Part shown: in pieces, positions 22,172 through 64,000 of the stretch
Position numbering within the stretch: the stretch's first letter is position 1
How the letters are laid out: each line of letters starts with the position of its first letter
Made by a program: the position numbers and the translations under genes
The notes under the pieces: generated by a model
The model's database searches: none
The model's input: the letters and a program-made list of their open reading frames with translations, nothing else
What the model was told of the DNA's origin: nothing
Assembly: GCA_040954595.2 (NCBI GenBank)
Contig: CM082580.2
Location: 11,422,909 to 11,486,908 of the forward strand
DNA from: Balanoglossus misakiensis
Taxonomy: Eukaryota > Animalia > Hemichordata
Direction: 5' to 3'
Length of the DNA stretch: 64,000 nucleotides

Positions 22172-23226
22172 TATCGTGGGGTCGTATGAAATTACAGTAA
22201 ACCATGAGTAAACTTGCTTTAGATAAATTTGGAATTTACTAAGCTTTGCAGCGGAATGAGTTTCTAGTCAGCTGTTGTTGACAGACGATCGAACCGGGAA
22301 ACGTTGTTTGCAGCTTCAGCTAGTCCACTTTCTAAGCCCTTACTTTATATCACATTAATGAAAGACGCGGCGAAGGAGGGATAAATAGAAGAACCGCAGT
22401 CAACGACGAATGAAAATGACTTTTGCGCCCACTTTTTTTATCGACTTGGGGGAAGACAAATAAACAAGCGCATGCGCGGTGTAGTCACAAGAAACTTGTA
22501 AAAAAAATTGTGAAATGACAATTTGCAATAAGCTTGCGTTGAATTTGTAGGTTTTGGTGTTCAGAATTCAGCGGTCGTTCTAACAAAATGAAAAAAAATC
22601 GCCACTGAATGCAACCTACACAAAAGACTTAGCTTCCACCAGCGTTAGTCGACCAAGTATTATTTAAATTATTTAACGCGACGGTGGTAATTTTACTGAA
22701 ATTTATTTGTCTGCTGGATGACGTCACCTACAGAATGTCAAGAAAGTGTGTTCGAATTTCCATTAAATTGGATTTAAATGTTCATTATTATTCACTAATA
22801 AAAGAGGGATGTTTAGGCCTAAACCCAGTCTACTCTATCAAAGCTTCGGGGATCGGGACGACATTTTATTTTCTAATTCGCTGCAGGGGACCGGTTATCA
22901 TAAAACGCCTGTGCGATCAACAGTATAATATCGATTTTCAAGTTTTTGCAAACCGTCAGACGTTCGGGAAGGGATACTTAGCGCGGGTTAATAATTATTC
23001 TATTTCCCCCCAACCCTCTGTGAGCGTGTAACCGATTGTTTAGCAGACACGCGTCCGGTTAGTAAAAAATTGGAGGGCTTGCACCGGTTGGTTTACAGGT
23101 TAGATGTACTACAATAGGCTACGATAAGTAAATTACAGTTTGCACGATAACTGAATTGCCATTACTTGCTCGAAGTTTATACTTGCTTTGTTCCTCGTCG
23201 TGTTTGTTAATTCGTCTGAAGAAGGC

Positions 23227-24238
23227 ATGTACGGCACCTCAGAAAGCCAAAGTCGCGCCGTGTATCCGTATAAACCCACCTGCCAGAACCGTTACTATCC
23301 AGAAGACGGCGACGACAACGAAGAGCAGAACGGCATGAAGTACGTTACCGGCAACTCGTCCGTCATGACCGACTCGTACGTGCCAAGCCCGGACGACTTG
23401 AACGAGAGCACCGTCTACCCGTCGTGCGCCTACTCCCAGCGGGAACCGGCGGCAGCGTCGTACTTCTACCGGGAGACGAACAGCTACACGCCGGCCAGCG
23501 CGGAGGAGTTCGACGGCAGCTTGTACTTCGACCAAGAGACGATGGTCTGCAGCACAAGCGGCGGCGGTGGCGTCGACAAGCGGCAGCGGCGGAGGCGATC
23601 GGTGGTGGCGAATCCGTACGTCATGCAACGACAGGCGGCCAATATACGGGAGAGGAAGCGCATGCTGAACATCAATTCCGGCTTTGAGGAGTTGAGATGT
23701 CACGTTCCAACTTTCCCCTACGAGAAGAGACTTTCTAAGATAGACACTCTGAGACTAGCAATTGCCTACATTGCGTTGCTGAGAGAAGTCCTTCTGTCCG
23801 GTTGCCCACCCATGGTGTACGTTGAGCGATGCATGAAGGCAGGTTTTAAAGATGGGAAGTCTCCAATCTGGAATACAAGCGGTAAGAGATAACTACGTTT
23901 GCATTTTCTTTGGAAGGGCTGGTATTTAAATATTTGAAAGGAAAATTTGAACTTAACATTTGGAAAGTGCACAAATGCGACTGGGAGGCTATCAGTCAAG
24001 GAATGTTTGTCCGAAACGACGTTTTTTGTTACCGCGATCCGAGCCGGCAACTTTACAAACAATCGACCATCGAATATCTCAAGTTGGCATACTATTGCAT
24101 GCATTCAATGCGCATACTGGAAAAATAGTATCTTTTCGACAGAAATCATCTGATCACACATATCTTGATTCTGATCATTTTAACTTGTTTCTCTCGTCAG
24201 ATCTTACTGCAAGACTCTCTTGGATAAAATGGGACTGA
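23227..24238 (+). CDS. Fer2: PTF1/Fer-family bHLH transcription factor, most like Fer2 (48-related 2 / PTF1b); 2 exons
   Basis: Exon 1 23227(ATG)-23881, donor GTAAGA; exon 2 24201-24238 after a polypyrimidine/CAG acceptor, phase 1. The bHLH reads [56 protein letters not shown]. The spliced C-terminus [16 protein letters not shown] is what I recall for the Fer2 subfamily. Confidence 0.88.
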
Positions 24239-34195: not shown

Positions 34196-36026
34196 GCCAG
34201 ACAGAGTTGATGCACATTCTGGGGCCGAGGGCGTGGCTCGCATCACGTGACCGTCTGACTTCGGACCGTACATAACGTGACCTAGAGTTTATGTTTAGGT
34301 GTTAGCCAGATTTACACCAAATGTCGTAAATAAAGAAATTCGCCCCGTGCATCCTGATAGCCCTGTGCAGCAAACACAGACTCGTCTTGTTTTCGTGAAC
34401 TCTGCTGAAACTATTCACAAACACGAGCCCCGGCTGCTTTTATGTGGCGCAAAACTTGTCTTCGGAGGAAACGGGATATATTCCTCAAGTGGGACTCCAC
34501 GCCGATTCGCGCCAGAGTCTGCGGTGATGACAGAAAACACATGCCGTTCAAGTCACCAAAGGCCGACTAGCATTAATTTTATTGTAGTTTTTTCCCCTAA
34601 CCGCGGTTCACATGTCAAACATGAGTACACATATTAAGATGAATATAACAGAACAATACTAATAATAGATTCGATACATTTGGATTCTCTTAATTGAAAG
34701 ACACGGGTCGCATGTCAGAAACTTTAAACTAACTAAAATTTGGAGGTCACTATTATCTACTATTACTAATACATATTTCGCTGCATCACGTCTGTATACA
34801 CAACAAATAAACGAAAACGATGACCACTTATACATGTAAGTATTCAGAATAGGCCTAGACTATCCAGACTAGCAATCCTTACGAATCGACCTGAAATGAA
34901 CTCAAAAGAGATCAGGTTTATAACCCAAAGCGTAGAAAAACAATCACGGGGGGCGTAATTAGAGTCAACGCTCTGGTGCCGGGGAAGGAAAATAACGATT
35001 AGCATCACTGGAGCCATAACTGGTGAAGGATTTGACTCAAAACAGAGAAGTGGTCCAACTTATCTAACGCTGTCTCAATGAACACCGCCCGCCTTAAACC
35101 CAAGACTTCTGGGAATAATGTTTTCACTTCCTCGAAGCGATCGGAATGCCGGGAGTGCCGGGGCGGATCACAACAAAAACAGTCGGCCGTGAGAGGTAGT
35201 AACCTGGGGACCAATTCATCATCGAATGGGAAAACATTATTCTATACATTAAAGTTTACTGGCGCATGCGTCCTTGCGGCGACTTCTTTGACCGGTGTCC
35301 ATAGAGACGCGATTCAAGTCCAGTTGTGGAAGTCTTCTGGAAATGCTCGTGGTTACGTAACGGAACATGATCAGAGATGGTAAAATAAGTGACAGTAAAC
35401 GGAATGGCATTCTATAAACTCGACTTTAAAATGTCTCATCAATCGACCTTCCCAATTTATTTGTGTAAGGGTAACCGAATTTGTCAATATTCAAAGTTCG
35501 GGCGTTAAACAGAAAACGAAGACAAAATATTTCAATTGGACTCACTTTTACATGATGGTTCATATCACCACTTTCAAGATCACAGATGATTTACTAGATG
35601 ATGGTTTATACGACTATGGTGTCTAGAATCTAAAGCTCATTTCGGTGTCAATGTGCAAGTATTTGCCCATGAAAAGTGCCAAATCGCAAAAAATATCGCA
35701 ATTATATTTTCACTCAATTTGCGCGTGCGTGGTACACCAGGCGAGAGAGAGAGCGGACTTCCCCATCGTAACACCCCATTCACCAATCACCAATCAACGC
35801 CAGAAAAGCGTTCTAATTGTTGCCGTGGCAGTTACACCAAGTGATCGCAGCCTGTGTTATAAATTGCTGCCGTCGAGCACAGACGTGTTAGAAGAATTCT
35901 CTGACTGGATCCGACGTGTTCCTGTGTCTTCAAGGAATGTGTAGACAGTCGACAAATTGGTGTTCACATTTTACGCTGCTGTCTGTCCTCGGCGCTTTGT
36001 GAGAGACGTTCACTCTGTATTCAAAG

Positions 36027-37136
36027 ATGAACGTCAGCGCAGCAACGGATCTGGCAACGGTTCCCCCGAACGCAACGGACAGCGACGGGAACGAACCGTT
36101 CTTCGTTACTTTCGACTTGTCCAAAGTGCTAGCCCTGCTGTTCATAAGCGTGGCCATCGCCATGTCCGTCTTTGGCAACGGCCTGGTCATCGCCGCTCTT
36201 GCCTTGGACCGGAATATCCAGACGGCGGCCAATTACCTGATCGGGTCTCTGGCGCTGGCCGATCTCCTCGTCTCGCTGCTTGTGATGCCAGTGCGGCTTG
36301 CGTATGACATGACGGAGATTTGGATCTTTGGCGCCGTTTTCTGCGACATCTACATCTCCTTGGACGTTCTGTGCTGCACGGCGAGCATTCTGAATCTGAC
36401 TGTGATCGCGCTGGATAGATTCTGGGCCATAACGAAGCCGCTAGAATACGTGACCACGCGAACTCCCAACCGGGCCGCTGCCATGATTGTCGCTGTGTGG
36501 GTGATATCAGCGCTTGTGTCCATCCCCCCGCTCTTCGGCTGGCGAACTCCTCAGGACAAGGCTGACCCGACGAAGTGTATGATAAGTCAAGATTTGGCCT
36601 ACACGGTCTACTCCACCCTGGCCGCCTTCTACGTTCCGCTGGGCATCATACTGTTCGTCTACTGGAAGATTTTCAAGGCGGCCCAGTTGAGGATTAGGAG
36701 AAACCGGATCGGCGAGGGGACCATCCACCAGAACGTCGCGCCGCGCCAGCAGCAGGACGCGGCGGCGATAGCTCTTCAAGTTCCCGCCGTCGGCGGGACG
36801 AACAACGACGACCAAGGGAAACGGCAGAGAACCCATAGCGAGGCGTCGAGAAACAACGACGTCAGAACGATAAGCGCCGCCAGAGAACGCAAGGCGGCGA
36901 AGACGCTGGGTATAGTCATCGGGGCGTTCGTTTTCTGTTGGCTTCCGTTCTTCATCATGGCCTTGATATTGCCCTTTTGTCGAAACTGCCGGGTGCATCC
37001 CGCTCTCCTCGCCTTCTTCGCGTGGCTGGGCTACGTCAACTCCATGCTCAATCCCATCATTTATACCTTCTCTCACAGAGAATTTAAGAAGGCCTTTACA
37101 AGAGTTTTGAGATGCAAACACAACAATCGATGGTGA
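36027..37136 (+). CDS. Class A aminergic GPCR, 5-HT1-like serotonin receptor, intronless CDS, 369 aa
   Basis: Seven hydrophobic segments; GN (TM1), SLALAD (TM2), D3.32 in SLDVLCCTASILNL, DRF, SIPPLFGW, CMISQD-YTVYSTLAAFYVP, ARERKAAKTLG, CWLPFF, WLGYVNSMLNPIIY; N-terminal NVS/NAT glycosylation sequons. Confidence 0.93.
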   Translation: MNVSAATDLATVPPNATDSDGNEPFFVTFDLSKVLALLFISVAIAMSVFGNGLVIAALALDRNIQTAANYLIGSLALADLLVSLLVMPVRLAYDMTEIWIFGAVFCDIYISLDVLCCTASILNLTVIALDRFWAITKPLEYVTTRTPNRAAAMIVAVWVISALVSIPPLFGWRTPQDKADPTKCMISQDLAYTVYSTLAAFYVPLGIILFVYWKIFKAAQLRIRRNRIGEGTIHQNVAPRQQQDAAAIALQVPAVGGTNNDDQGKRQRTHSEASRNNDVRTISAARERKAAKTLGIVIGAFVFCWLPFFIMALILPFCRNCRVHPALLAFFAWLGYVNSMLNPIIYTFSHREFKKAFTRVLRCKHNNRW

Positions 37137-40656: not shown

Positions 40657-42593
40657 GAGCTCTTGTAGAGTTGAGTTTCCCAAGATTTCTGCAGCGCAGT
40701 TTACAAAGTGATTCAGACATTACGGCGTTTGTCACCAACCGGTCACCTACTACTTCGACGAAAGGGATAAACTTTGAATGCGAAGGTAGGAAGAATCACG
40801 CTCGCGTTAAACAGGCCATGATACTTCATGGAGAGCGTGATGCCGTCTCAGTGTCTTAGACATAGGCCTAAGCAGTGAACCATACACATTGAAGGTATGC
40901 GCCTATCTTAGTCATGACCTTATTTTATCGATTTTACTGCAGAGAAATTTCTACAAACAGGGTAGACGTGTACTGTAAACGTGTTAGAGGACCTACGTCC
41001 AATCTCGGAAAATAGCTTGAAGAGTACTAGCTTGAAGAGTACTATGTCGGTGGCAAATTTAGCGTTCTAAAGATTTTGCAAGGAATCTTAAGCGTAGCGT
41101 GACATATGAGCTTGCCACGTCGTTTTGTTTATCGCTCCATTTTCTTCGATTGCCGTTTTGAAGTCGGTTTGTCTTAAAAGCAATTCCATCTAAGCCGCAG
41201 TTTATCAAACCGGGGAAAATTTGTCATATTTTACACTCCAATGTGTCTAGAGACTATCGACACACAGTATCTTAATTAATTTGTGTGGTTGCAATATGAC
41301 AGTGTATAAACCCATGGAAAAGTAAACTTTGATCAATTGATGTCTTTTATTATTGGATAGGATGTCAGACTCACGTCATGTATCTTCCATTGTGGAATAT
41401 ATCATGTGAGATTGCGCAGCTGCTGTTCAAAAAAATGTAAAATGCCGCATATAAATAGCAAGATCAGGTTTATGGTGGAATTGAGTCAATGTGTCCATTT
41501 CTGCCATTTATCTCTTTTCTGTTTTCTGGTAGCGGTTTTCATCTGGAGTTATTGGAGGAGACATTAACATACATATTACACAGCTATGATGCCGGCGCCC
41601 GTTGCTTGCTGTTGTAATAACGGATTTAAAATTACAAATGCAATAGAAAGTCACGAAGTATTGTTTTGCCGAAAAGACGTATGTTTATAAGCTTTGATCG
41701 ATGTTGATACAGTTATTTGGAGCGGAAGAAATTAAACGCAATAACCCTTCCCCCTGTTTGCACTTTCAATTGTAAAGACGTGTGAGCCAGGTAATAATCT
41801 TTCAGCTAATATCTTCTCTGGATTTCAAATTTAGATTTAATCATCAGCCATATAATACAGCGAATGCTTTTTCAAGGATGTACGTGTGTACACGCGATAT
41901 CATGGTCAGCAGGATTTAACATTTAATGATTGTATATTGCCCAAAAATTCTGCGAACAGCCGCCTAATCATGTCTGAAAAATATAGTTATCATAGTGAAA
42001 TTATAATGTCATTATGACAATTACCGTGCAGCATTAATGGTTTCGAATTTGAACCTCCCTGAGTTCAAATTACGGTAATAGACCCATCACAATAATTCAT
42101 ACTAACGCCTCGGCAAAGCATTTACGAAAAACACAAGGACGGTCAACTATTCAAGCCGTGTCGTTAATTGGCAATTTACACGACAACCAAGGGATTGTTC
42201 GTACTGACATTTTCCAACCTTAAAATCAATCTAATACATTTTCCCACAGGAAATATTTTCCATACATTTAGAATCTAGACTCGAAAATCGTACACATGCA
42301 TTTGCTGAACGTTCTGTATTTATATGAGCGGTGGCTCTTTACTTCGATAAACGCTTACAGTGCTTAATGTTCGATTTATTTTGACAGAACGACAGCGTGG
42401 ACTCTGCAATTTCAACGGAGATGGTCGTCGTGATTAGAATTTGAGAACGGTGTGTGCACACGGATTGTAAATAAATGCATCATTTGGATTGGTGCGGTTG
42501 GCTAGATCGATTAGACTGTTTACTCTCGCTGTACGTTGACACTTGTACTTTCCAAGCACTCGGCGGACTGTCATCCCTCCTAATTCGGTCGCC

Positions 42594-43730
42594 ATGGAAA
42601 CACTGACCGATACTCCGCGGGCTTGGGGCACATGGGGGGACAAGGAAGCCGAAAACGACGAATACTCCGTCGTTTATATCTCAGTCGTGTCAGTTCTCTT
42701 GAGCCTTATCATTTTTTCCACCGTAGCCGGTAATCTACTGACCATGATCACCATATTTGCGAGCAAGGATCTCCGGACGAACGTCAGTTACTGGTTACTG
42801 CTGTCGCTGGCTTTCTCCGACCTTCTCGTCTCCATCCTCGTCATGCCGCTGAGTTTGAAGAAGCAGCTGCAGAAGAAATGGGACTCCAGTCCGGTGCTCT
42901 GCGACATATGGATCACGCTAGACGTCACCTGCTGTACGGCATCCATCGTCAACGTCGCCGCCATTGCTGTCGACCGATACTGCTCCATAACGCAGAAGAC
43001 CTCGTACGTGGACAACAGGCGGCGCGCAAACGTCGCCATGGTGATCGTCATCTGGGTGCTCTCTTTCCTCGTTTCGCTGCCTCCGCTGTTCGGCTGGAGG
43101 AGAGACGAGGACCACGGCGAACCGGGCGAATGTCACATCAGTCAAGATTTGATGTACACCATCTTCTCGACGATCGGCGCCTTTTACCTGCCCCTGTTCG
43201 TCATGCTGGCTTGCTACTGCAAAATTTACAAAGCGGCGGCGCGGGTGACGTTCCGCCGAAGACCCACCCGGGTGGAACCGTACGTGCCTCGCGGAAATAG
43301 CAGAAACGGTGGGAATGTTAACCAGGGCGGGGGTATACATAACACGCCCGCTGTTCGGGGACTCGAGCTAGACGCAATCGCGCTTTACAACCCCAAGGTA
43401 TTCGCCGCCGACGTCAAACCAGCAGAATGTGCGCGTACCGGCGGCGGCGGACCGAACCAGTCCGTGGAGAAGCGGACCGTCGTCACCCTGGGCGTGCTCA
43501 TCGGGGTTTTCATCGTCTGTTGGCTTCCGTTCTTTCTGCTGGCCACGATTCTGCCTTTCTGTCGGCAGTGTTCAGAGAAGCTTCCCGCCGACCTGGGCAG
43601 CTTTGTACTGTGGTTAGGGTACTGCAACTCGCTGTTTAATCCACTGATTTACACGTTCTGTCACAAGGATTACCGGCTGGCCTTCAAGAAACTCTTTTGT
43701 AATGTAGCATCAGTTTCCACAGTTCCATAA
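42594..43730 (+). CDS. Second class A aminergic GPCR, divergent 5-HT1-like receptor, intronless CDS, ~378 aa
   Basis: The first ATG (gccATGg) is at 42594 within ORF 42543-43730. Motifs: GN, SLAFSD, TLDVTCCTASIVNV, DRY, SLPPLFGW, CHISQD-YTIFSTIGAFYLP, CWLPFF, WLGYCNSLFNPLIY. Confidence 0.92.
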   Translation: METLTDTPRAWGTWGDKEAENDEYSVVYISVVSVLLSLIIFSTVAGNLLTMITIFASKDLRTNVSYWLLLSLAFSDLLVSILVMPLSLKKQLQKKWDSSPVLCDIWITLDVTCCTASIVNVAAIAVDRYCSITQKTSYVDNRRRANVAMVIVIWVLSFLVSLPPLFGWRRDEDHGEPGECHISQDLMYTIFSTIGAFYLPLFVMLACYCKIYKAAARVTFRRRPTRVEPYVPRGNSRNGGNVNQGGGIHNTPAVRGLELDAIALYNPKVFAADVKPAECARTGGGGPNQSVEKRTVVTLGVLIGVFIVCWLPFFLLATILPFCRQCSEKLPADLGSFVLWLGYCNSLFNPLIYTFCHKDYRLAFKKLFCNVASVSTVP

Positions 43731-48670: not shown

Positions 48671-51039
48671 ATGAGACGCATGATGCGTCCACGGCCGGTG
48701 ATGACCGGCCTGGTGGTGGGAGCGACGGCCGGCGCAGTTTCCCGCAGGACCGGTGGGAAGTCCAGCAGTAGCAGCAGCAGTGGGCAGACCACGGAGGTCC
48801 ACCACTACCACTCCAACCCCCCGCCGCCACAGGGCCAGCCCGCCGGGGCCCAGCCGTACTACTACTACGAACACCCGCCGCAGAATCCCCCGCAACAGCC
48901 GTACTACCAATACCCACCACCGCCACAGGGGCAACCGCAGCCAATGACGCCAGAACAACACCAACAATATCAACTACAACAGCAGCAATTTTACCAACAA
49001 CAACAACAGCAGCAGCAAAAACAACAACCTCCACCGCAAGCAACGGCCACGGTCGTCACTGTAAACGTACAAGTAAGTAAAACATAATCAATGGTAAAGA
49101 AAGTTGCTGAGAAAGTACACTTTTTGTATTGAGAGATTTTTTAGTCGTGGGCACATCTGGATATCATTTCAGTGTGGGGAAACCGGGAAAATGAACTACT
49201 TCGCATTATTACATGTACATGCTTTTTTATTTTTTATTTACAAATTATTTCCCTTTTTATAGAAAGACCAACCAGAAAAGACGTCCGTAAGTTCAGCAAG
49301 TACAGCCGCTACAGGTAGGCACGCGCTTACACTATGTACAGTAAAAATGCTAGCATACCAAATAGGCATATATACGCATATGGCCTCGTTTTAGTTTACA
49401 GCGCGTTGACCCCAACGCATACCCGTCATCGTGAAAGGCGTTTTCACATTCAGTAGATACTATTGAGTTCTGCATTGTCCGCACTCAAGATCTTACGATC
49501 GAGAGGGAGGACATTATACAATATTCTTCTCCAAATCCCTCGCATGTGACGACGCCGTGCTCATCGTCATTGTATGCGGCGATGTCGTAAAAGACGTTCT
49601 TAGATCTAGGTAAGGTTCAATACGATGTCGCTTCCCATTATCCATGCTGAAACGCGCAACACACTATTGAATCATGAACCATGTCGTTTGTCCCGGCCTG
49701 GCGTTGCAGCCTTGAAATGTGTAGGCAATGTATGCATGATGTGGATTTCGCATGATGGAATTAACATGGCCGAGTTTTTAAATCGTGAGAATTCCTAATA
49801 TCTGGGGCATAATCATTGGGGCATATGATAATAGACTGCTGCAAATGTTAGCCTGAACAGACGAGCTTATACAAAAGGGAAAGTAAGGACCTCTATTTGG
49901 GTCTTACATCATTACATGCATTCAGTATTTACTAGTACATGTGGCTGAGAGTACGTTAAAGTTATCAGCGCGCACATGCTATGACCATAACGCGCGCGCG
50001 TTCACGGTTGTAAGCGTTGTCTGGGGGCCCGACATTTGGGCCTCTCACTCACGGGATAAAATCGCATACACAGGGGCCGCGTGATTGGACATGGCTGTTC
50101 AGTGCTGCCCTCACCGACGTCATGATGTTAGTCTTTCGATTGAAAATGAATAAAAAACACGATTCTGAGAGTTCATTTCGTGTATATATATAGCTTTTCT
50201 GAAATGTTGAGAATTATACTTAATGTTTTTATTTATTTGTTTCAGGAGAGTCCAAACCAAGTATGGCCGAACCGGGCGTCGAATATATCACTGATATACG
50301 TAAGTACAGGATGCAGATCATGTTGATGATGATGATATGATATTAAACCTAAAGTGTTTTCTCCAGACAAACTCATTGCGACGGTCTCTTTAAATATCAA
50401 GATTTTATGACTTGTAGGTATGGCCGAGTCAAAAGACTTTTCCGAGCTCATCCTTGAAGTCAAGTGTCCTGGAGTGACCAAGTTCAAGGGAATCAAGAAA
50501 CAGGTCAAGGTCAAGGCGTATTTTGGTGACAAGTAAGTCGTTGTCACAAGTTTTGTCAGTAGCAATATCGAATTCATGAGTTCAGTCTATGGTTCAAGCC
50601 ACATAGAGAGAACAACCTTTACATCTTAGCATTCATGTAACTTTCTATTATTGAGCTTCTAAAATTTCTCCTGTCTTTTATGACTTTGCTGGGCCATGTT
50701 TGTTTTCATGACGAGACCTTTTTTGGTGTTATTTCTCGATGCAGGTCTTTCGACGTCAAAATAGAATACAAATCTAAAACGTATGGACTGGAATTGAACG
50801 GGAAGCAGCTGTATAAACCTATTGTGAGCAAAAAATGTGAATACAAGGTGAGACTTATCTTGATACTATTTCTGTTGACAATAAACCTGGTTGTTACACG
50901 TACTTTTCTGACAACATTTTCCCCGTATTTACAGATTGAAACAGACCAAGTGAAAATAACTCTACGTAAGGTAAAAGCTGAGACGTGGCGATCCGACGGC
51001 GGCAGGGGCGCCCTCAAACTACTTGCCTCAGACGCTTAA
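48671..51039 (+). CDS. Uncharacterised protein: Q/P/Y-rich low-complexity N-terminus plus C-terminal CS (p23/SGT1/CacyBP-like) domain; 6 coding exons, ~276 aa
   Basis: Exons 48671-49072, 49263-49314, 50246-50299, 50418-50532, 50745-50847, 50935-51039 (GT-AG, phases 0/1/1/2/0, 831 nt). The C-terminal FGDKSFDVKIEYKSKTYGLELNGKQLYKPIVSKKCEYKIETDQVKITLRKVKAETW fits the CS beta-sandwich pattern. AATAAA at 51141. Confidence 0.82.
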
Positions 51040-52026: not shown

Positions 52027-53809
52027 GATGCCCAAAGCGACAGGAAAAAAAAAACGAATCTTATTGTGAATGGCGAACAAAAACAAACAGCACACGACAA
52101 GGTTAAAATAAATGATTGACATCTGTATATTGTAGCAAAGATCAAATTACCAACAAACATGTAAACCTTATTGAGATATAAAATGCAATTTGTTTTGCAA
52201 AAAGGGTAACTAATCCCAGAAAACAGGAAAAAATACATCCCAACACGGAAATTCAAAATTTTACAAATTCAACATCAAAAAATCCAAAATGGCTACAAAT
52301 TCATTGAGAATAACAAAATTTATAGATACTTCCCTTTATTTCTGAAAATATATAGCATGGCTTTCCCTGTTTTTTTTCCTCTCCAAGTGGCCACACAATT
52401 CAACCAAAACAGGTCAAAAAACGAGATGTTCACATCTTAGAAAACAACCACTGGAATTTCAAACTCTGCATGTAAATCTATCGGAACATAAAAGTGAACA
52501 TTCACATTTGTGTACAAGGCTATTCAAGGCATGCAGTGGTCAAATTTTCTGAGAACAAGTACTGGACATCACCAAAACTTCCGAGTCGGGTACCTAGTGT
52601 TGTTATTTTTTTTAAGTAGGTGTAACCCTACAGTTTAAGCAAAAATGAACTTCATAGGATGGCAGCAGAGACAGTGGGTTTCTGAATGGTTTTTGACTCC
52701 ATCCACAAAACTATATTCTAGAGTATACTGCTGAGCCCACCTGTACTGTCAGGAATATGATTATAAGAAAGTTTCTTGTTCTTAGGGTTGCAAATCTAAA
52801 TAAATTGAAGGAATACGTTTTGTTCATACACTTGTTACTAAACTACAATGTGTCAGTTTTTTTCAATTTTCAAAGAAAGATAGTTTTCGATATAAAGCTT
52901 TGAGCTTATGCAAACAGAACAATTTGATCTGATGATAAACCTGTCTTCTTTTCAATCCTTTTTCCCGTTTTCAAAGTGCAGTGCTTATAGCAAAGACTAA
53001 AAGACAAAAGGCACCACACCATCTCTCAATAGAAACCTTGCCCAGTGAATATTTAACAGAATTTCAGAAATAAGTCATTCTTATAACTGTATACATGCAC
53101 ACATATATACACTCTGAAAAAAAGCTGCCTAAACTTTGAGTCTAATTTTAAACATTTTGTCATCTGGGTTATATGGTTGAAATTTCATTGGATCTTTCTT
53201 TACACGGAGAATGAAAACAATTTCGATTTACAATTTGTTCATTCCTGTAGTACTCATTGGTCTCTTGTTTGTTCTGCTGGTTACCTGTGACATAAAGTGT
53301 AAATTTCCATCAGCTTTTACTCATTTTTCTTAATTTGCTTGCTTTATACACAGAAAATAAAACTTCACATAAAATACATGTTCTGTCCCTTATACCTATA
53401 GCAGATATATTTGACAAACTGTCACATGACAGTCGCAAGTATAGGGCACATTTTTCTAACTAAATACACCTGTTGTATTTCGTAAGATACTGAAATTCTA
53501 AATAAGCATGCAAAGATACATCTATATATCTATGTTTTAAAACTTACAAGAAAATACAGAAAATCAAAAAAGATTCCTCCTTTTCTAAGTAAGATGATAT
53601 CCTGAAACAATATTTACGCTTTTTGCCAATTTAAATTTGTGTAATATTTTTGATGTAACATTTAAAACTCGCAAGATAATATCACAACAATAAAGATATA
53701 CTGATTTCTTCTCTCCATTGGCTAAACAACTCTACATTAAACAAATAATCCAGTCACTGATAAAAGAAAATTTCAGTCATGACCAGGATTCTCTCTTACG
53801 CCTGATTTT

Positions 53810-56800
53810 CTATTTTTTGCTCTTGTCTACTGAACCTCTTGCCATTAGACATGCAAAGACGGTCATCACCATCTTGGGTTTGACTTCCACTAAATCTTCT
53901 GGTAGGGCGTACACGGGAGCGCCGATCTTGCGGGCCATGGAGATGGCGTACTTGGCATTCAAAAACTTGTCCTGCAACAGGGGATGAATAACAGAATAAC
54001 AAAAATCAGTCAGATGTATTTATATTCTGGTCCACTGCATGCATTTCTGATCTACTGCAAGAGCGCCCTCAACATCTCATGTACAGCAATTGTGTCACCT
54101 TGGTTACCATGCAGAATCCATTGTGATTCAAGATGGCGGCTGACCAAAATTGGCCATTTGTAGGATCAGAGTATATGATAAACTCCCATAGCCAGAGCTA
54201 GAAAACCTGTATATTCCAGTTTCTCATTCTTTCATACTTACATTGTCACTACTTGGGTTTTCTCTGAAGTTCTTGTAACTGATAGAATTTGGCTGTATGG
54301 CGTCAATCAAATCTACAACGGCTTTGCTGTCACCGATGCTGTGGTCCTGGAAATTACGAATGCTGGACGTCTTCTTGGCTTGTTTGAGCTGTTCAAAGAG
54401 AAACACAAATCTTTATATCACTGGGCTGGCAATTTTGTATAATGCGAGTGCAGAAATTTTTTAAAACGATCTCAACCACTTCAACACTTTCATACACACA
54501 CACACACACCCACACATGTGCCCATACAAAAAACTATGCCAAACTTACTTTATTGTTGCACCACTCGACTACTTTGTCATCAGTGATGGGCTGATCTGAA
54601 CCAGAGAGTCTCTGGAGAATTCGCAAGGTGTAGGCACGCATCAACTGCCACACAATAGCTGCAATGGAAACAATCCATCAAAAGTTAATGTACATGAAAA
54701 AGCACTGGGTCCCACCATCAAGAAAGCAAAAACACTGCTATGTGAAATGACATATGACCATGTATTCACTCCGTGTTCATCCTCAACGTTTTCTTTGCTT
54801 TTTAAAGGTTGAATACCATAACAACTCTTTTGTGTTTGAAATAACAGTTTGTCTGCAAATTATGAAATCAGTACAAAAAACAAAATGCAAGGACTTACCC
54901 AAGGTAAGAGTCTCAACACCTTCATGGATATCGTTACCACCGATCCCGACCAGAGAGAACTTCATTCTGGAGCCAATGTCGACGCAGTAGTTACAGTTTT
55001 CTAGTTTCTTCATCTTGCCACCGCCAATCTTGGGCCATGGTGGCCTGTTGACTTTGCTCTTGTCAACAATGCCAGGCTGCACATGATCATACAACTGGAA
55101 CAGAATACAAAAGTTGGATCTCTAAAGAGGGAACTGGGGGTGAAGGGGTTAATGGCTGGGGACAAAAATCAAACATGTGCCGTCACCCTTCTGAGGGGTT
55201 GTGGGGGGCACAGAGTGTAGGTACGGCTTAAATTCAGTGTAGAAGACTCACCTGCAAAATGACCAGACCGTCACAAAGATCGTTGTACAGATACTGTACA
55301 TAGGGAGAAACGCCGAGACTGTTCATCCAGTTACGGAACGCTGGAAAGGAAATTAACAAAACTTAAAACCAAAACAAAACATAAAAAAAACATGCTGCGT
55401 ACAACTTTACTTGCCATGCGGTTAGTCGAAGTGGCAATCAGTTGTGGTCAGTCCAACTGTGGTATACTGTACACGCAGTGAGAAAACCTCTGGTGAATTA
55501 ACTTCTATGTCTAAGTATCTGGTAAAAAAAAGTTAGTATATTTATGCGTGAAAACACTGCATTTACTTAGCAGAACTTGGCATAGTAGACCCAACTTGAG
55601 ATGTGCTATATGATAACACAATCAGGTATGTTCAGATTCATCAATGTCTTAATCATTTTATTTAATTCTTTTTTTTTTACAAAATTCTAGCTCATACAGA
55701 CGGAAGGTTCTCGAGTCAGCCCATGGTGAAAGTAAAATTGTTAAAACTTCCCAAACATATTTTAGCTTCTAATAATTATTATACCCATCTAATTAACCCT
55801 CATGATCAGAAAGAGGTTCTCATTATGTCGGGATCACACTCAAACAGCAGTCTTGTTATTTGGAGGTGGGAATTTCTCAATGGAAGGACTTCAGGTCACA
55901 GAGTACTTGCAGTGTACTGAATGTGTGCGCTCACACTTGTGCAAGGACAGAGGGAAGGTGTGCTCACTAAAAGTGGTGTGATGTTAGACTACCACCATAT
56001 GCCTTTTATGGCAAGCAAATTTCACTGCAGTCTTTTAATATCTCCAAGCTTCTACAGGTTATCAAAACTGCGTAAAGAGCAGAAGGTGTTTGATCCCCTC
56101 TTTTTTCCTGTGCAAGTGTCGACTGGACGGCCAAAGCATGGCATATATGCCACTGCTACTTGCGTAAAGATTAGTTAGAACCATAGAGCCACACACACAC
56201 TCATGCTTTGTCAGTGGTACAGGCAGATAGAAGAAATCAATTATCTTCTACGTTTTCCACCTTGCCAGCGTCTTCTCGTGTAAGGGCACAGAAACCAGTG
56301 ACATCATATGTATAGGTGCTCAAGCCATTGCTGACATCATCAAAATTTGCCAGCATCACTGAAGAGAACGTTGCTTGACTACATAGAACTGCACCGCTTT
56401 AACATGGGACACAGGACACTAACTGTATGTACATATCAGAGAATTATAAATTCTCCAGAATGTAAAAATACACACAGTCAGATACCTTCTGCTTCAAAAA
56501 CAAGCAAAACATGCACTTGCTAAAGCTTTCTAATTGTCTAGACTTTGGACTGTATGACAGCTGTATGACGGCTTCTTAAAGTCTATTCTACTGAATGAGG
56601 TATTTATAGAACATGACGATAGAAGTCTTGAAGTTGAGAGAAAGACATTTTTCATTCAGGATGCAACAGTAAGGTTTCCTGTGATCTCCCATTTGGAAAT
56701 TTGGAAATCCTGAAATCCACAACAAAACACAAGGAACATCATCAACACAAAGACAGATTAGACACCTTAATTAGGACAAGGAAGGAACGATGACAAACAG

Positions 56801-59800
56801 AGAAACAAAAGAATGAAAATGCAGAGAGATTCTGGAAGGAAAAAAGTTGTGTTTTAATAGAGCAAATAAATATATATGAATTCTTACAGTTATCTGAAAT
56901 GTAGCTGCATTGATCAAAGTGACAATGGTGTTAGGAAAAAAAAACATCTGCAAGGTTAAGAAAGTCTACGAGGACAGATGAAATGGAATAAAACAGGTCA
57001 GGTAGTGAGAGAAAAGGTGGTTGGGGGAGAAGTGCTAGGATTTGAAAATGAAGGATGTCATCTTATTGATTTTTATTCCAATGTTCCAATATTCATTTCA
57101 TAGCCAAGTTATGCAGTTTGGAACAGCGATTGTACTGAACCTAATGAAACGATGTTCATCTATGTGAATGAGAACAGTCTGAACATGGAATGGCTGATCG
57201 TTTCTTGACAGCTGGAAGTTGCGCTGGGTTTAAAATGTCATGACAAAGGGTAGTGTCACCACAAAGAAAGCTGAGGTGTCTACAACCACCGCATCTACCA
57301 AATAGCCTATCACCAAGTGCCAGATTACAATATAGGACTATCACCACAGAAGAAAAACATTGCACACAGAAAGTTTACATTACTTAGTCGTAAGTATACC
57401 CAACATGAAGATCCCCCTTTAAAGTTTCTTTCCTCTCAAGACAGTACAACAAGCATTGCAGCACTTCACTGGCCATCCCATTAAGTTCTTTTGTTTGTTC
57501 AGGTTTTTTAAAAAAGGGGGTATCATTTATGAGCACCAGTATCATAATAAAAATATACATTATATATTGGGGATATGTGTCAATGATTTGGCATAGTCTG
57601 TGATATCAAAAATCTACTGCACGTGAAATCAAAGATATTGCAACTGCAGTAGTGAAAGTCTATTGTAAAAGTTGCATTGAGTGGCATCATTAATACCAGT
57701 GACATATACTGTCAGTGTCACATTCCTATTTAAACTGATCAAGAAATTGTATTGGCTACCCATCTGTCCGGTTTTGAAAGTTTGCATGTGCCTCGTAAGT
57801 TAGGACGGGATTAGGAGGTGGTGTCGGTTAAAAGGAATTTACAACTGCAAGAAAGAGTTCACAGATTGATATAAACTTTTGCTCTCACTTCAACATAGAT
57901 ATGATTATAAAGACTCAGAGACCTAAGAGAATTCCACTAATGTGGATAGCAGTATGGGTAAGACACTTTATGGCAGGGAGAAAAATTCCCTAAGAATATG
58001 GCATTGGGGAAGACCAGACAAGTGCTGCAATGTAGGAAAACAGGTGCATAACAGTGAGTAAGAACCTTGATATGTCCAAGTAAATGTTAGCAAGAATCTA
58101 AAGCTGTAATGCCATTGAGGTTACCAAGGTAATGTCACAGTGTGATCAAGTTATAAAAATGGTATCAAAAACACTAAACATATTTGCCCTCTATCAACGA
58201 ATTGGGCTTGCACTTCAAGGCACTCGGAAGTTTTAGATTATTTTGTTCAAAGTAAGTTTTTGTTCACCCACAGTGGACTTAATATTTACTATAGACAGGT
58301 TATACAAGAAGCCTTCCTAATATATAAAAAAAACTAACAGTTCATGTTCAGGTTATTTCTCAAAACAAGTTACTTTAAAGATTTTCAAAGTACTGGTATA
58401 TGCAACAGACAAGCAAAATCTCAGTGAAAGAGAAAATTTCTTTTTGTTGGCACATTATCAAGGCAATGCTCAAACTCATCCACATGGTAGATGGTAGTCC
58501 ATTTTTAATAAATGCAATGGACCATTCCAAAATTGTGGGAGCACGGGGAAGACAGGCCTAACCCATGAGGGGATTTTTTAATGGCATTACAGCTTTAGAC
58601 TTGACTTCATCCGATGTCATGTGTCATAAAGACCACTAATATTATTACACAACACATGAGAATGACAAACAAATAAGAGTTTTGGCCAAGAAAAGAGAAC
58701 AAGTCAATTTGTTTTAAAACCGTTTCACCACCACCACAGTTTGGGTAAACCAATTGTTTTGAATACTGAGGGAAATGGGGTGAAAGAGTTTAAGGTACTG
58801 GCTTGATGCCACAGTTTTTTTTTTAACTTTGTGTCTTGAGAAAACATGTGGAGATAGAGATGCAAAGTTTATGGCATGTGGGGAGTACATGTACAACTCT
58901 ACTGATATGGCAAAATTGTGGGTTCTTCTACACAAGACCAGTACCCTGGTGCAAATGACATTCAATACAGAGAAAATAGAAAGACAAGCACCGAAAAACC
59001 ACATGAATATGAATCACAACAGAAAATGTACAACCATATAGCGAATCAAAGAGTGACAGATATAAACAGACCAAACTGAAGACTGAAAAGACCACAGATG
59101 AAAAAGAAGTTAAAGAATACCTCTCTAAGTATACTTGTGTGTTCTATTGCACTCGACATTTCCTCTCTCACAGTATCACGCATACCTTCATGATCATCAT
59201 AGTTTTTGTTCTCTCTCTCTCTCACTGCCATCTGTATATGAGATACATAACACCCAAGCTGACACCGATGAGAATACAAACAAGACACTGTGTGGCAGCT
59301 GCGTCCTGCTCCTTAATATCCTTATACTTGGCCGCGGCTTTGACCGACACTGGCTGTTTAACACGTATCACTTTAGGGAAAGTCTCTGCGGCTGTCACGG
59401 CTGCCGACTGTTTCACCCTCTGCCGTGTGCTTTCCTGTGTCTGCACTAGTGGGGGTGTCACCCTCTCCGGTAACGGCACATCCTGCTTTTCTGTGGCTAC
59501 CTTTTCTGGCTCTTTCTCTACCTTATCCGGACTACCCTGATCTTTGCCGTCTGGGGAGAAATCGGGTTCCTCTTTTGGGTGGTAAGGTGTGATGGGACCT
59601 GTTTGAGAAAAAGTAACGCCTGCAAAATCTTCAAAGGAAAACTGTGTGGGCAGTCGCCGTTTTTTACGTTTTGCTCTGGCATGGCTCTGCCCTGTTTCAG
59701 GTGTAGCCTTCTCCTTTACTTCACTATCTTTATCATGGTCTTTTAGTTTTTCTCTATAAACAACTAACCCACCTCGCTTTTGTACATTTCCTGATGAAGG

Positions 59801-62800
59801 AGTTTCTGCCTCATCTACTTTTTCCTCTGAATTGACCATTTTTGAAGTGCTGGTCTCGCTCACATCATTATTTTTCCCTTCATCAACATATGGCCTTTCC
59901 TCATTTTGTCCAGGACTAATTTCCATCACTTGAGATTCGTGTGCCTTGCTTCTATCACCGTTATCTGCCTTACTCACCATTTCTACTTTGCTATCATTAC
60001 TGTCTCCCAATTCAACTAAATTAGATGAAGGTGCGGGCAGAGAAACCCTGGTTGTCTCTGATCCGTCCGTTTGTTCACTTCCTGTCACTGAAATGTCTCC
60101 CTCAACAAATTCCTGTTGATCAACACTATCTGAGACAGACTCACTCAGATTGGCGGCAGATTCACTTGCAGATTTTTCCTGCACAGATTTATCTGTTTCA
60201 GAGTCTTCTGAAGACTCCAATCTCAAGTCCCGTCCCTCAGAATTACTTGCATCAAACTTCTCTGATTGTAAACCCTGTGTGTTAGGATTGGGGTTGGGGG
60301 TCTGCATTTCTACTCGGCCTTCTGCTGTTTCTGAACCCATTAAATTCTGACCATCAACCTCATCTGTACCTAACTCATCTAAACTTGATGCAGCTGTTCT
60401 GCAGGGAGGGGGAACCTCACCAGCAAGGTCATCATCATCAGTACCGTTTGTATTCCCCACGAAAGCCAGTCTCGCATCTGGTACACACACTCCACCACCG
60501 ATGCCACACTCAATCAAATCACCCTCACCACACTCAGCCACAGACACATCAGGGTTCACTCCGTTTTGTTCTTGCGCACTGCCATCAGCAGCAGTTGCTA
60601 ACTGGCCACCTTGGTTGCCCTCATCACAACCATTTCCCACACCACCACCGTTGGCGGTATTATGCACTTTAATCGGAATGGGCAAGAGCAACCCTGCAGG
60701 TTCACCATCCATGGGGGAAACGCTATCCATTATGTTGGGGAGGTTGTCTGCGGGGGCACTGCCTTCCTTCCCGCGGTCACTGACACCCAAAGTGGGGACC
60801 CGGGCGTCAGGGATTGCATTGCTCGCATCGGGAGAATGAAGCGACAACATCCCGTCATCTGCAAAGATGTCATGCTTCCCATCAAGAGGCGCTGCCAAGT
60901 GTTCGCTATTGATATCTAAAGAATAAGGGTCTTTATACGTACTCTTCTCTTCTCGGGTTTCTTCGAATCTATCGAAGTCTTCATCTTCGCCCTCCTCTGG
61001 TGGTTTCAAGTTGGGATACATGTTGAAGAGGTTGGCCACAAAGGCCATGTTAAGTTTTGGGTTTCCATTCACGATGTCCTGTGTATCAACAACAATAATA
61101 AACAGTTTAACCTCACACAGGGTAGTCTTTATGAATATTATAATACACACACGGGTGACACCTTGTCGAGCAAAGGTTATTCATATATATCTTCAGTGAC
61201 TAGCATAAATATATATAACTAGTGGGGTCAAAGGTTAGTCACACATTCAACAGATTTGGCCATAAAATCAAATATGATTCATTTCTGATTTATGATCACA
61301 TTCACATTCCAACCACTACTTACGGATGCTTGCACAAACTGTCTGCAGCCAATCTTGTCAGCATTATCTAGTACCATTTCAGCCCTACCATGGGGGTCAC
61401 TCTCCTGAAAGGTAACAACACTTTGCAATGATTTCAATACCTGCACACCAATGATGACGAAATTATTAAGCTTCACTTAGTAAATGACAGCACTGTAATG
61501 TTTCTGGGTACAGGTAGATTTAGACTTACGGCCATAGCTGATGTATCAACGCCAGAGCCCTTGGGTGCAATTTGATACAAGAGATAGGTGTAGACTTCAG
61601 AATCCTTGATGTCAGAGCTGAAGTTCTTGATTCGCCTTGGGTGGCCGGCCTGCTCCATCTGGTAATTCACCCAGCGCATCAGCAAGTCTTCAGGAGACAC
61701 CTTGAGAAGCTCTTCCAACTCTTCCCCTTCTTGCAGTAGTCGGAACAGACCAGGATTGTGCTGCAAGTCGATCTTGGCGAACAGGCCAACCTATTTGGAA
61801 AAGTCACAAAATTTCCCCACAATAAGCAGCTAAGAAGTGCAACAACAGACCTTTCTTATCGCCAATGGAGGCTCAAGAAAAAAATCACTTTCACAGATTC
61901 TCCATCAAAACCTACCCTGATGATTTGCCAGAGCAGACCAAGCATCAGATGTTCTGTGCCTCGCATCAAGTCCTCGGGTCCGATATTGACGATGTTGCAG
62001 CCGATGGAACTGGCAGAATTCAGCGCCAAGGTGTGATTTTCATGCTTGAGATACACGTTCAGCTTGCTTCCCTTGTTGATGGCACGTTCGTCGATGGTGT
62101 CAGGAACTGACAAGTTGATGAGTTTGCTACAGAGACAAGAGACAGAGAGAGAGAGAGTGAACAGATTGCTAAGGAAAGAAACTGAATCCCAAATTTTGTA
62201 TTTCAAGGTGGCACAATGCCATATCTGCGAACTATGGCCAATACCACATACAGGCTTCAATGAAACAATACCATCTCTGACAGTACTAACCATAATAAAA
62301 TACCATCACCACCACTTTTGAAAAGTGCATCTGAATTGGGGTCCAGTGGTAATTTCTCCTTCAAGTCTGGGTCGTCTCCAAGATTAGCATTTATGTACTC
62401 TGAAGGAAGGAGCAGAGAGACAAAATGCCACTTAAGTATGAGATCATGGTCTGTAGTACATTACAGAAGAACAGAAAATAAGTGATCTACTGCTGTGTTG
62501 AACCCTAATATTTAATCAGCCAAAGAGCTTATAACCAGCCACAGACAAACAAGTGTCTGTAACACCGGAAAGGATTTTCTTTGAATCACAGGGAATTCTT
62601 TGAATGAATGCCTCGGGCACTCAACAAATATATCTGAACAAAGGTCTTCTTTCATCCAGACTTCCCTGAACTCAAACAAAATGATGTCTGTATTTCAACT
62701 ACAGGTTGAAACTGGGTTTAGCTGGTTCTCGAAATAAGGATGTTTAGTAAACAAATGTGATCACACACCAACAAAGGCAAATCTCTCTTCTTCAGAAACG

Positions 62801-62922
62801 GAATGTGTAGTTCCTTCGCTGGAGGCTTCTGATGTGCCACCCCTAGCTTCAATGCCTTCTTTCTTGGAGAGAGCCTGCTTGAAGGTGCGGGCAACTTCCT
62901 TGGATTTCATGTCTGAATACAT
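53810..62922 (-). CDS. Plastin/fimbrin (actin-bundling, CH1-CH4), 5'-partial; 11 coding exons in the window
   Basis: Exons 62922-62769, 62399-62291, 62126-61916, 61790-61530, 61404-61324, 61078-60943, 55340-55252, 55094-54899, 54658-54549, 54388-54242, 53971-53810 (TAG), all GT-AG with consistent phases. Motifs: [127 protein letters not shown]-hand exons were not found inside the window. Confidence 0.96.
59222..61078 (-). CDS. Putative extended alternative terminal exon of plastin: end of CH2, ~570-aa acidic disordered tail, C-terminal transmembrane helix
   Basis: The reading frame of exon 61078-60943 continues through the donor (A|GTACGT) with no stop until 59222, ending ...[26 protein letters not shown]. 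It is the longest ORF in the window and sits in an otherwise stop-rich intron. Confidence 0.75.
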   Translation of the reverse strand, partial: DIVNGNPKLNMAFVANLFNMYPNLKPPEEGEDEDFDRFEETREEKSTYKDPYSLDINSEHLAAPLDGKHDIFADDGMLSLHSPDASNAIPDARVPTLGVSDRGKEGSAPADNLPNIMDSVSPMDGEPAGLLLPIPIKVHNTANGGGVGNGCDEGNQGGQLATAADGSAQEQNGVNPDVSVAECGEGDLIECGIGGGVCVPDARLAFVGNTNGTDDDDLAGEVPPPCRTAASSLDELGTDEVDGQNLMGSETAEGRVEMQTPNPNPNTQGLQSEKFDASNSEGRDLRLESSEDSETDKSVQEKSASESAANLSESVSDSVDQQEFVEGDISVTGSEQTDGSETTRVSLPAPSSNLVELGDSNDSKVEMVSKADNGDRSKAHESQVMEISPGQNEERPYVDEGKNNDVSETSTSKMVNSEEKVDEAETPSSGNVQKRGGLVVYREKLKDHDKDSEVKEKATPETGQSHARAKRKKRRLPTQFSFEDFAGVTFSQTGPITPYHPKEEPDFSPDGKDQGSPDKVEKEPEKVATEKQDVPLPERVTPPLVQTQESTRQRVKQSAAVTAAETFPKVIRVKQPVSVKAAAKYKDIKEQDAAATQCLVCILIGVSLGVMYLIYRWQ

Positions 62923-64000
62923 CTGTTGGCAGAAGAATGACACTCATTTCTTCAAGTGGATAGAGAAGTTCAATACTATGAACCACATGTACTTTGAAAC
63001 ATGAAGCAATACACTATACAGTGAGCATATCATTTTCCTATGGTGGTGTTGGCCTTGAACTACCTGCCTCCAGGTATGAACCAGTTGCTGAAACATCACA
63101 CTGCTGCATGATTAGAGAGCCACATAAAGAATCTACACAATTTAAATTTTAATGCAGTTGATACACAGTGCATGCCTGAGTCTCCATGAAGATTATTAAT
63201 ACTTATCATGGTGGCGCCACCGACAGTTTTCATATCTCTATTAATTTGTATGCACACCAACTCTCCCTACCGCCCTCCCTACCTCCCCTTCCCTTTCTCT
63301 GGGCTAATGGATTTGCATTTAAAACAGGTTCAACAAATATTGAGAACAAATTATAATCTTTCACTCAAGGCAAATATATAAACCATCTTCTGTATTTTTC
63401 TGTATTCTTTTCGTTTCTGTATACATCCCAGAATATCTTGCCTGGCAATTTACCAGTTTTAAATTTTTGCTTGGAGTATCACATCACATCGCCACTGATA
63501 TGATACGGATACAATTATGGATACCTCAGCAAACAAAACGCACAGTTATGTAGCGTGCGACCGGTAATGGTTTGGTTTCAGGTTATACCCCGGGCGGGAC
63601 TGGCATCGGAGGTCAGCAAGGGGCCAGAAAAAGAGACCCAGCAAGGCCTTCTCAGATCCCCGGTGGAACTCCCCTCAAGTGACATGTAAATATTTTACTC
63701 AGTAACGCAACACCTCGCTGCAGTTCAGTGGTAAATAATGCGACAGACTTCAATTCTTTGGCAGATAATGCAGGGACATGGGGTCAATTAGCGGCAGTGT
63801 TCTCTTGCAGTTCTCTCTCGTATCATGTGTGCCATGAGACTAGGGTAAGATGTAGGTCAGAGGGCAGTTGATTAAACTAAACCCAAAGTGCCGATGCAAT
63901 GTTAATAAGTACTTCATTATATCCCCTGGTCAAGATCTTTCAGGTACCAGATTATAACACTAGCAATACTGCCCATGTTTTCTGTTTTCCGAGCAACAAT

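Follow-up and report, generated by a model that had tools for sequence, protein, structure and literature searches.

Can a plastin gene, whose spliced product is a soluble protein, also encode a membrane-anchored one? The question is raised by a 64,000-nucleotide stretch of contig CM082580.2 (assembly GCA_040954595.2, positions 11,422,909 to 11,486,908, forward strand) from the acorn worm Balanoglossus misakiensis, called the window below. On its minus strand lies a plastin gene with two domains that bind actin (ABD1 and ABD2). The exon that completes ABD1 stays open beyond its splice donor for 573 codons of the following intron, and the frame closes directly after a predicted membrane-spanning helix. 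The added tail is almost certainly a real coding sequence, under selection or very recently so. It is reasonably likely that it serves as a composite terminal exon, giving a plastin isoform with EF-hands, ABD1, a long spacer and a tail anchor that would work like calmin.

The plastin gene and its spliced product

Eleven exons on the minus strand (53810-62922) belong to the plastin gene. The exons for the EF-hands presumably lie past the end of the window (64000); residues 1-78 of the Ptychodera flava plastin-3-like protein (P0001), which has the EF-hands, gave no tblastn match inside the window. The exons are as follows.

62769..62922, minus strand: EF/CH1 linker to the start of CH1, first exon in the window
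62291..62399, minus strand: CH1
61916..62126, minus strand: CH1
61530..61790, minus strand: CH1-CH2 hinge and CH2
61324..61404, minus strand: CH2
60943..61078, minus strand: last CH2 helix and ABD1/ABD2 linker up to ETREEK, common to both predicted isoforms
55252..55340, minus strand: start of CH3 (ABD2), with the canonical acceptor for donor 60942
53810..55094, minus strand: four more ABD2 exons (55094-54899, 54658-54549, 54388-54242 and 53971-53810, with the stop in the last)

Joining these exons at canonical AG/GT sites gives a single frame of 551 amino acids without internal stops. It is identical to P0001 at 497 of 548 residues (90.7%), to the plastins of Saccoglossus kowalevskii and Glandiceps talaboti at 434/543 and 434/544 (80%), and to echinoderm and mollusc plastins at 57-63%. 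P0001 shows four CH matches, and the spliced product carries both tandem ABDs (CH1-CH4) in one chain. To judge from its sequence, the spliced product is an ordinary plastin, like human PLS1, LCP1/PLS2 and PLS3 and the hemichordate plastin-3-like protein XP_070566512.1.

An open frame in the linker intron

The intron after ETREEK is 5,602 nucleotides (nt) long. The remaining nine introns measure 125-369 nt, the longest being about 15 times shorter than this one. When the P. flava protein was aligned with human plastin-3 and with a solved ABD2 construct, the junction fell between CH2 and CH3, just before CH3. A first-pass annotation of the window had located the branch point in the ABD1/ABD2 linker and had described a frame of about 570 codons running past the donor into a 5.6-kb intron; both statements hold.

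60937..60942, minus strand: splice donor AGA/GTACGT, phase 1, G at 60942, partner acceptor 55340, 5/9 matches to the U1 consensus
59222..60942, minus strand: in-frame intronic extension, 573 codons plus TGA (59222-59224), an acidic spacer predicted to be disordered

The extended frame is the longest by far among the 70 window frames of at least 100 amino acids. The other two sense frames over the same stretch hold 28 and 69 stops, and Markov simulations averaged 30-34 stops over 573 codons, so that the probability of a stop-free frame is about 1e-13 to 1e-15. Base use at codon positions 1 and 2 is like that of the plastin exons, with G at 42% of first positions. Coding potential was scored in 30-codon windows with a 3-periodic model of orders 1 and 2, trained on the plastin exons only. 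Within the tail, 15 of 19 in-frame windows scored above zero with order 1 and 9 of 19 with order 2, against 5/129 and 1/129 elsewhere in the intron. Directly after the donor, the first 30 codons scored +3.9 in their own frame, compared with -19.4 and -9.0 in the other two (order 1). The GC and purine contents fall directly after the tail stop. Together, the open frame, the codon-position bias, the in-frame coding scores and this fall lead to the tail frame being read as protein-coding.

The first-pass annotation had named a match to a transposon or an independent nested gene as what would overturn its proposal; searches of Pfam, PHROGs, repeats and copy number revealed no such signature. The tail frame has no tandem or dispersed repeat and is present as a single copy within the window. 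Its only Pfam match, Podoplanin (E 0.28-0.31), is below the cut-off, with no transposase, reverse transcriptase or gag domain; no PHROG family matched it, and Rfam gave no match in 53000-64000.

The tail protein and its predicted anchor

The tail is rich in S, E, D, G and V (9.9, 9.2, 8.7, 8.6 and 8.2%), acidic over its first two thirds and more basic towards the end. In an AlphaFold model of the 618-residue exon-plus-tail frame, made from the single sequence, the predicted local distance difference test score (pLDDT) was 41 overall and below 50 at 562/618 residues. The exception is a helix at residues 587-617, where the last two blocks reached 93 and 91. The best 19-residue Kyte-Doolittle mean, 2.16, falls at the C-terminus of the tail; nowhere in the spliced plastin does a window exceed 1.39. 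These results agree with the D/E/S/G-rich low-complexity chain, the hydrophobic stretch and the RWQ end that had been described earlier, and one confident C-terminal helix after a largely disordered chain is what the proposal led one to expect from transmembrane and disorder prediction.

59654..59677, minus strand: basic cluster RAKRKKRR, residues 468-475 of the 618-residue frame
59234..59287, minus strand: predicted transmembrane helix, residues 598-615, mean hydropathy 2.44 over 18 residues, with a GxxxG motif and two Cys at the cytosolic end
59222..59233, minus strand: RWQ, predicted luminal tail (net +1), and stop

Of 5,000 shuffled versions of the tail, none had a helix of this kind among its last 26 residues. 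As in tail anchors, a single hydrophobic helix with a short polar end lies within the last ~25 residues. Under rules set out for mammals, anchors whose helix is hydrophobic and whose tail carries little charge tend to go to the endoplasmic reticulum (ER) (PMC5450235, accessible text). With a hydrophobic helix and a tail charge of +1, the predicted anchor therefore points most likely to ER insertion, when the mammalian rules are applied. A motif scan of the tail found no FFAT-like, SxIP, RVxF or CaaX motif; two LIR-like matches and the one basic cluster are candidates. Since the read-through stop at 59222 lies upstream of every ABD2 exon, ABD2 is absent from the extension isoform, whose predicted length is ~968 amino acids, counting ~78 residues outside the window.

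Possible ways of joining the tail to the plastin head

The coding frame is continuous across a donor that is otherwise used, which is one mark of a composite terminal exon. Such exons make up 61.6% of assembled human isoforms made by intronic polyadenylation (PMC5928244, accessible part). The cases described there, including the IgM heavy chain and the human atlas, have in common with the predicted isoform that a donor is ignored and the intron becomes a terminal coding exon. They differ in that the cited cases mostly remove a transmembrane segment, whereas here one would be added, after a 573-codon frame.

In the first 240 nt of the tail frame the best acceptor-like site scored 1.1, against -1.7 to 11.0 (leave-one-out) for the real plastin acceptors. 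Farther along, one site stands out.

59598..59618, minus strand: acceptor-like site, first base after AG at 59598, phase 1, suggestive only

It is the best acceptor-like site in the tail frame (score 10.8, next best 6.5). Splicing from donor 60942 to 59598 would remove 1,344 nt (448 codons), keep the frame and leave an anchored tail of 125 residues. The shuffle P was 0.03-0.04 with one model and 0.15 with a less overfitted one, and no branch-point-like motif was found for it. A shorter anchored form made through 59598 may co-exist with the long form. Two donor-like sites of phase 1 also occur within the tail, TGA/GTGAGT (60145, score 7.8) and GAG/GTGGGT (59773, score 6.6).

Evidence that weighs against the proposed isoform

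A number of observations count against the proposed isoform and have to be set beside the coding signal. The first 10 and the first 20 tail codons, scored alone, are negative (-6.8 and -3.6), and synonymous codon use in tail and plastin is weakly correlated (rho 0.21, P 0.12; GC content at third positions 0.40 vs 0.57). The helix alone is no proof, because a hydrophobic stretch also closes 5 of 111 stop-terminated T-rich intronic frames. Within the plastin gene the donor at 60942 ranks among the weakest, and 5/9 is the commonest value for the linker intron elsewhere in animals (14/26 loci); a weak donor was rejected as an argument for read-through, its strength being equal to that in most other animals. 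Polyadenylation hexamers are at chance level: two AATAAA were observed in the intron where 2.3 were expected, and five ATTAAA are present. The two AATAAA signals that the first-pass annotation had offered do exist, but as they are no more frequent than chance they were rejected as evidence for intronic polyadenylation.

58504..58582, minus strand: two ATTAAA candidates, 640 and 713 nt past the stop, not above chance
57072..57077, minus strand: AATAAA candidate, chance level
55657..55662, minus strand: AATAAA candidate, chance level

A long T-rich pyrimidine stretch also occurs in the distal intron (56700-56860, minus strand), after an ATTAAA and with short frames beyond; it may represent a poly(A) element of the downstream type, or else an acceptor tract.

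The linker intron in other animals bears on the same issue. A scan of metagenome contigs was followed up in the best 80 of 314 confirmed stretches. Their identity was 67% at most, too low for a close relative. The same phase-1 linker intron was present in 26 of them, forming 8 sequence groups of non-hemichordate animals, and 25 of the 80 read on into a canonical CH3. The position of the intron is thus common to many animals. The following exon was located in 22 of the 26 loci, and in these the intron measures 58-1,814 nt; in all 26 the frame reaches a stop after 2-120 codons, with a median of 12. Because of this early closing the extension is, as far as these loci represent animals, not pan-animal. 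One animal locus (L080:1045) has the linker intron apparently shifted to phase 0, and the killifish plastin-1 entries P0016 and P0017 differ by a 7-residue deletion in the ABD1/ABD2 linker.

Protein searches likewise returned no counterpart of the tail. Among 7,996 scored candidates (339-1082 amino acids) the single match ran through the shared exon only, and the last 179 residues matched none of 500 candidates. A search with the CH2 exon among proteins of 154-2000 amino acids (20 matches among 120 candidates) showed P. flava, S. kowalevskii and G. talaboti each with one plastin of 626-628 amino acids, in single-member clusters; by RefSeq convention a name without an isoform tag means one annotated product. 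No animal protein built of EF-hands, ABD1, spacer and transmembrane segment was found among the best 150 of 13,372 representatives matched by EF plus ABD1. One of those 150 is strongly hydrophobic in its last 48 residues, and there the hydrophobic part is the helix of CH4 in a full-length protein. In viral contigs, 7 pattern matches to the tail were obtained and none was confirmed. Neither the whole frame nor the last 154 residues of it had a usable match in the ESM Atlas, a result counted neither as absence nor as novelty. The literature searched, with subscription journals largely outside it and without supplements, listed no membrane-anchored or ABD1-only plastin isoform, which accords with the earlier statement that no described isoform of this kind was known. 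The extension is thus unannotated in the collections searched.

Alternative explanations

The tail might belong to a nested gene on the same strand, a single exon encoding a disordered tail-anchored protein with no actin-binding domain. ATGs are available at 60850, 60730 and 60712, and both the codon use unlike that of plastin and the absence of any annotated plastin with such a tail would fit. However, starting at 60850 or later, its frame would have to match the plastin exon by chance (1 in 3), and ahead of the first ATG there are 31 stop-free, coding-like codons (+5.0 vs an intron mean of -12.9 ± 7.6 per 30 codons). Its promoter would also have to sit within exons of plastin or in the 245-nt intron upstream, and the first 600 nt have a CpG observed/expected ratio of 0.56 with no island; a nested gene is unlikely. 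The terminal exon could instead be entered by an acceptor from some other upstream exon, such as that with the phase-1 donor at 62769 or one outside the window; the product would then be an anchored protein that has the EF-hands only or is unrelated. The poor coding score of the first 10 codons speaks for this, as do phase-1 AG sites at 60915 and 60858 that would preserve the frame. Those sites, however, score -3.7 and -1.7, where real acceptors reach from -1.7 to 11.0, and 60915 is only ~27 nt from the donor, which makes such a route quite unlikely. With no good acceptor in the first 240 nt, and with a nested gene needing both a chance frame match and the coding-like codons before its ATG, read-through of the donor is the simplest way of joining the tail.

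It is also conceivable that the frame is dead or never-expressed coding DNA, inserted as a retrocopy or mobile-element fragment or created by an assembly chimera, and in frame by accident. The failure of every search to find a tail homologue, the A10 runs at 58824 and 55678 and the 15-fold excess in intron length would suit an insertion. The tail, though, has no Pfam or PHROG family, no repeat in the frame and a single copy in the window; donor and acceptor are intact on both sides, 573 codons are not expected to remain open for long without selection, and the helix is placed exactly at the stop. An accident of this kind is improbable, about as much as a nested gene. Use of the donor-like sites at 60145 or 59773 with acceptor 55340 would yield a two-ABD plastin with an acidic linker of 266 or 390 residues, a cross-linker of wide spacing. 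Such phase-1 sites are probably common by chance in 1.7 kb, and this splicing would not account for the 184-308 open codons at the end, the helix or the stop; it is the most improbable of the explanations considered. Finally, the short anchored form could be the main product, with the 448 codons as a retained exitron-like intron and the long form minor. The score and phase of site 59598 and the whole number of codons removed point that way; the shuffle test that lost its strength in the less overfitted model and the lack of a branch-point-like motif do not, and for the 448 codons to have stayed open they must be coding as well, so that this arrangement is very unlikely as the principal one. 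In the absence of transposon, tandem-repeat, RNA-family and nested-gene signatures, and with an in-frame coding tail, a plastin isoform ending in the tail is the best reading.

A predicted membrane-anchored plastin

In the proposed mechanism, donor 60942 would be skipped as transcription passes through it, and the intron sequence would be read on as a terminal coding exon in a transcript presumably cleaved and polyadenylated within the intron. When the donor is spliced to 55340 instead, the ordinary soluble two-ABD plastin would result. The read-through product would consist of the EF-hands, ABD1, an acidic disordered spacer of ~550 residues and the predicted C-terminal tail anchor. Its helix would insert in a membrane, probably that of the ER, and the single ABD would hold F-actin weakly at the end of a long flexible linker. 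The isoform would then act as an ER-to-actin tether, most likely calmin-like. Having only one ABD, it could not bundle actin as a monomer. Isolated human ABD1 binds F-actin with a dissociation constant of 2.6 uM, and it binds ABD2 in trans with a nanomolar constant irrespective of Ca2+ (10.1101/2021.12.01.470822, accessible text). Dimerisation through GxxxG could raise avidity, and recruitment of opened full-length plastin via its ABD2 is a further possibility.

The first-pass annotation had suggested a Ca2+-sensitive tether. In the accessible text of PMC10046292 and PMC8257523, Ca2+ inhibits plastin bundling and ABD2, not binding, and ABD1 most likely binds F-actin largely independently of Ca2+; Ca2+ control of the tether is doubtful for this reason. 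As to the membrane-bound single-ABD isoform itself, the in-frame coding tail and its tail-anchor-like helix are upheld, and conservation of the tail in the 26 non-hemichordate loci is not.

Plastins are described as soluble, monomeric proteins that carry two ABDs (PMC10046292, PMC8257523), and the word 'transmembrane' is absent from the accessible text of PMC8257523. The predicted isoform differs from them in losing ABD2 and gaining a spacer and tail anchor. Its closest likeness is to calmin (CLMN), described in the available part of PMC10849733 as a vertebrate-specific protein of 1,002 amino acids with tandem CH domains, a disordered region and a C-terminal transmembrane segment of 17-18 residues, and reported there as the first tether of ER tubules to actin. 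The predicted isoform has the tandem CH pair, the long disordered spacer, the short C-terminal transmembrane segment and a length of about 1,000 amino acids. Calmin differs in having its own gene and CH domains of the nesprin/actinin type; the B. misakiensis head is of the fimbrin type, presumably with EF-hands, and would come as an isoform. The tail has no match to calmin among the 7,996 candidates mentioned above. As judged from these comparisons, the resemblance is one of convergence, not descent. The parts (composite terminal exon, tail anchor, CH-spacer-transmembrane design) are known, and their combination in a plastin appears new.

If true, a family of highly conserved actin bundlers would gain a new job through a membrane-anchored one-ABD isoform, and an invertebrate deuterostome would have reached the calmin design from a different actin-binding head. 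The isoform would also provide a natural test of ABD1 acting alone in cells, which is a debated matter (PMC10046292, accessible text). It suggests that annotation overlooks long intronic terminal exons in conserved genes.

Single-ABD proteins elsewhere

Two taeniid gene models, CDS40079.1 (P0128, Echinococcus multilocularis) and VDM31339.1 (P0170, Hydatigera taeniaeformis), stop after ABD1 at the same linker junction and continue into a conserved alternative tail of 58 amino acids, which was counted in favour of the proposed isoform. The tails are identical at 55/58 residues and the upstream parts at 195/200. They differ from the B. misakiensis tail in having no transmembrane helix and no similarity to it, and they are known from gene models, in which the tail may be a read-through, a truncation, a split gene or a fusion to a neighbouring exon. 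The first helix of the 58-residue tail presumably resembles the start of a CH domain.

Single fimbrin-type ABDs also occur in protist or unnamed sequences (P0147, P0169, P0103, P0114, P0122, P0154, P0165), where a long C-terminus of unrelated sequence comes after one CH pair; a single ABD of the fimbrin type can thus be used as a module. P0147 and P0169 further share an acidic spacer and hydrophobic C-terminal segments, and are possibly a separate family of membrane-bound fimbrin-type proteins. In contrast to the predicted isoform, these proteins apparently stand alone, have several hydrophobic segments rather than one anchor and show no tail similarity. It may tentatively be proposed, with doubt outweighing confidence, that a calmin-like tether arose independently in acorn worms from a plastin intron, that one gene yields a soluble bundler or tethers of two lengths, and that, considering the tapeworm models, the ABD1/ABD2 junction is a repeatedly used switch in animals.

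No support was taken from two single-member gene models, the frog P0024 (EF-hands, ABD1 and a 175-residue tail with no transmembrane segment, at another junction) and the nematode P0117 (a hydrophobic stretch in an 81-residue tail, with garbled sequence). Flatworm plastins P0037, P0068 and P0125, with cluster members from Clonorchis, Opisthorchis, Spirometra and Dicrocoelium, keep both ABDs. They carry a low-complexity extension of ~300 amino acids after CH4, with a common short end motif.

Other features of the window

Two intronless genes of rhodopsin-family G-protein-coupled receptors lie in tandem on the plus strand (36003-37136 and 42540-43730), 75% alike over 80 nt. Also on the plus strand, two 44-nt repeats (48851-48939) fall within a Pro/Tyr-rich frame without a Pfam match, and a 245-codon frame at 23155-23892 contains a bHLH domain.

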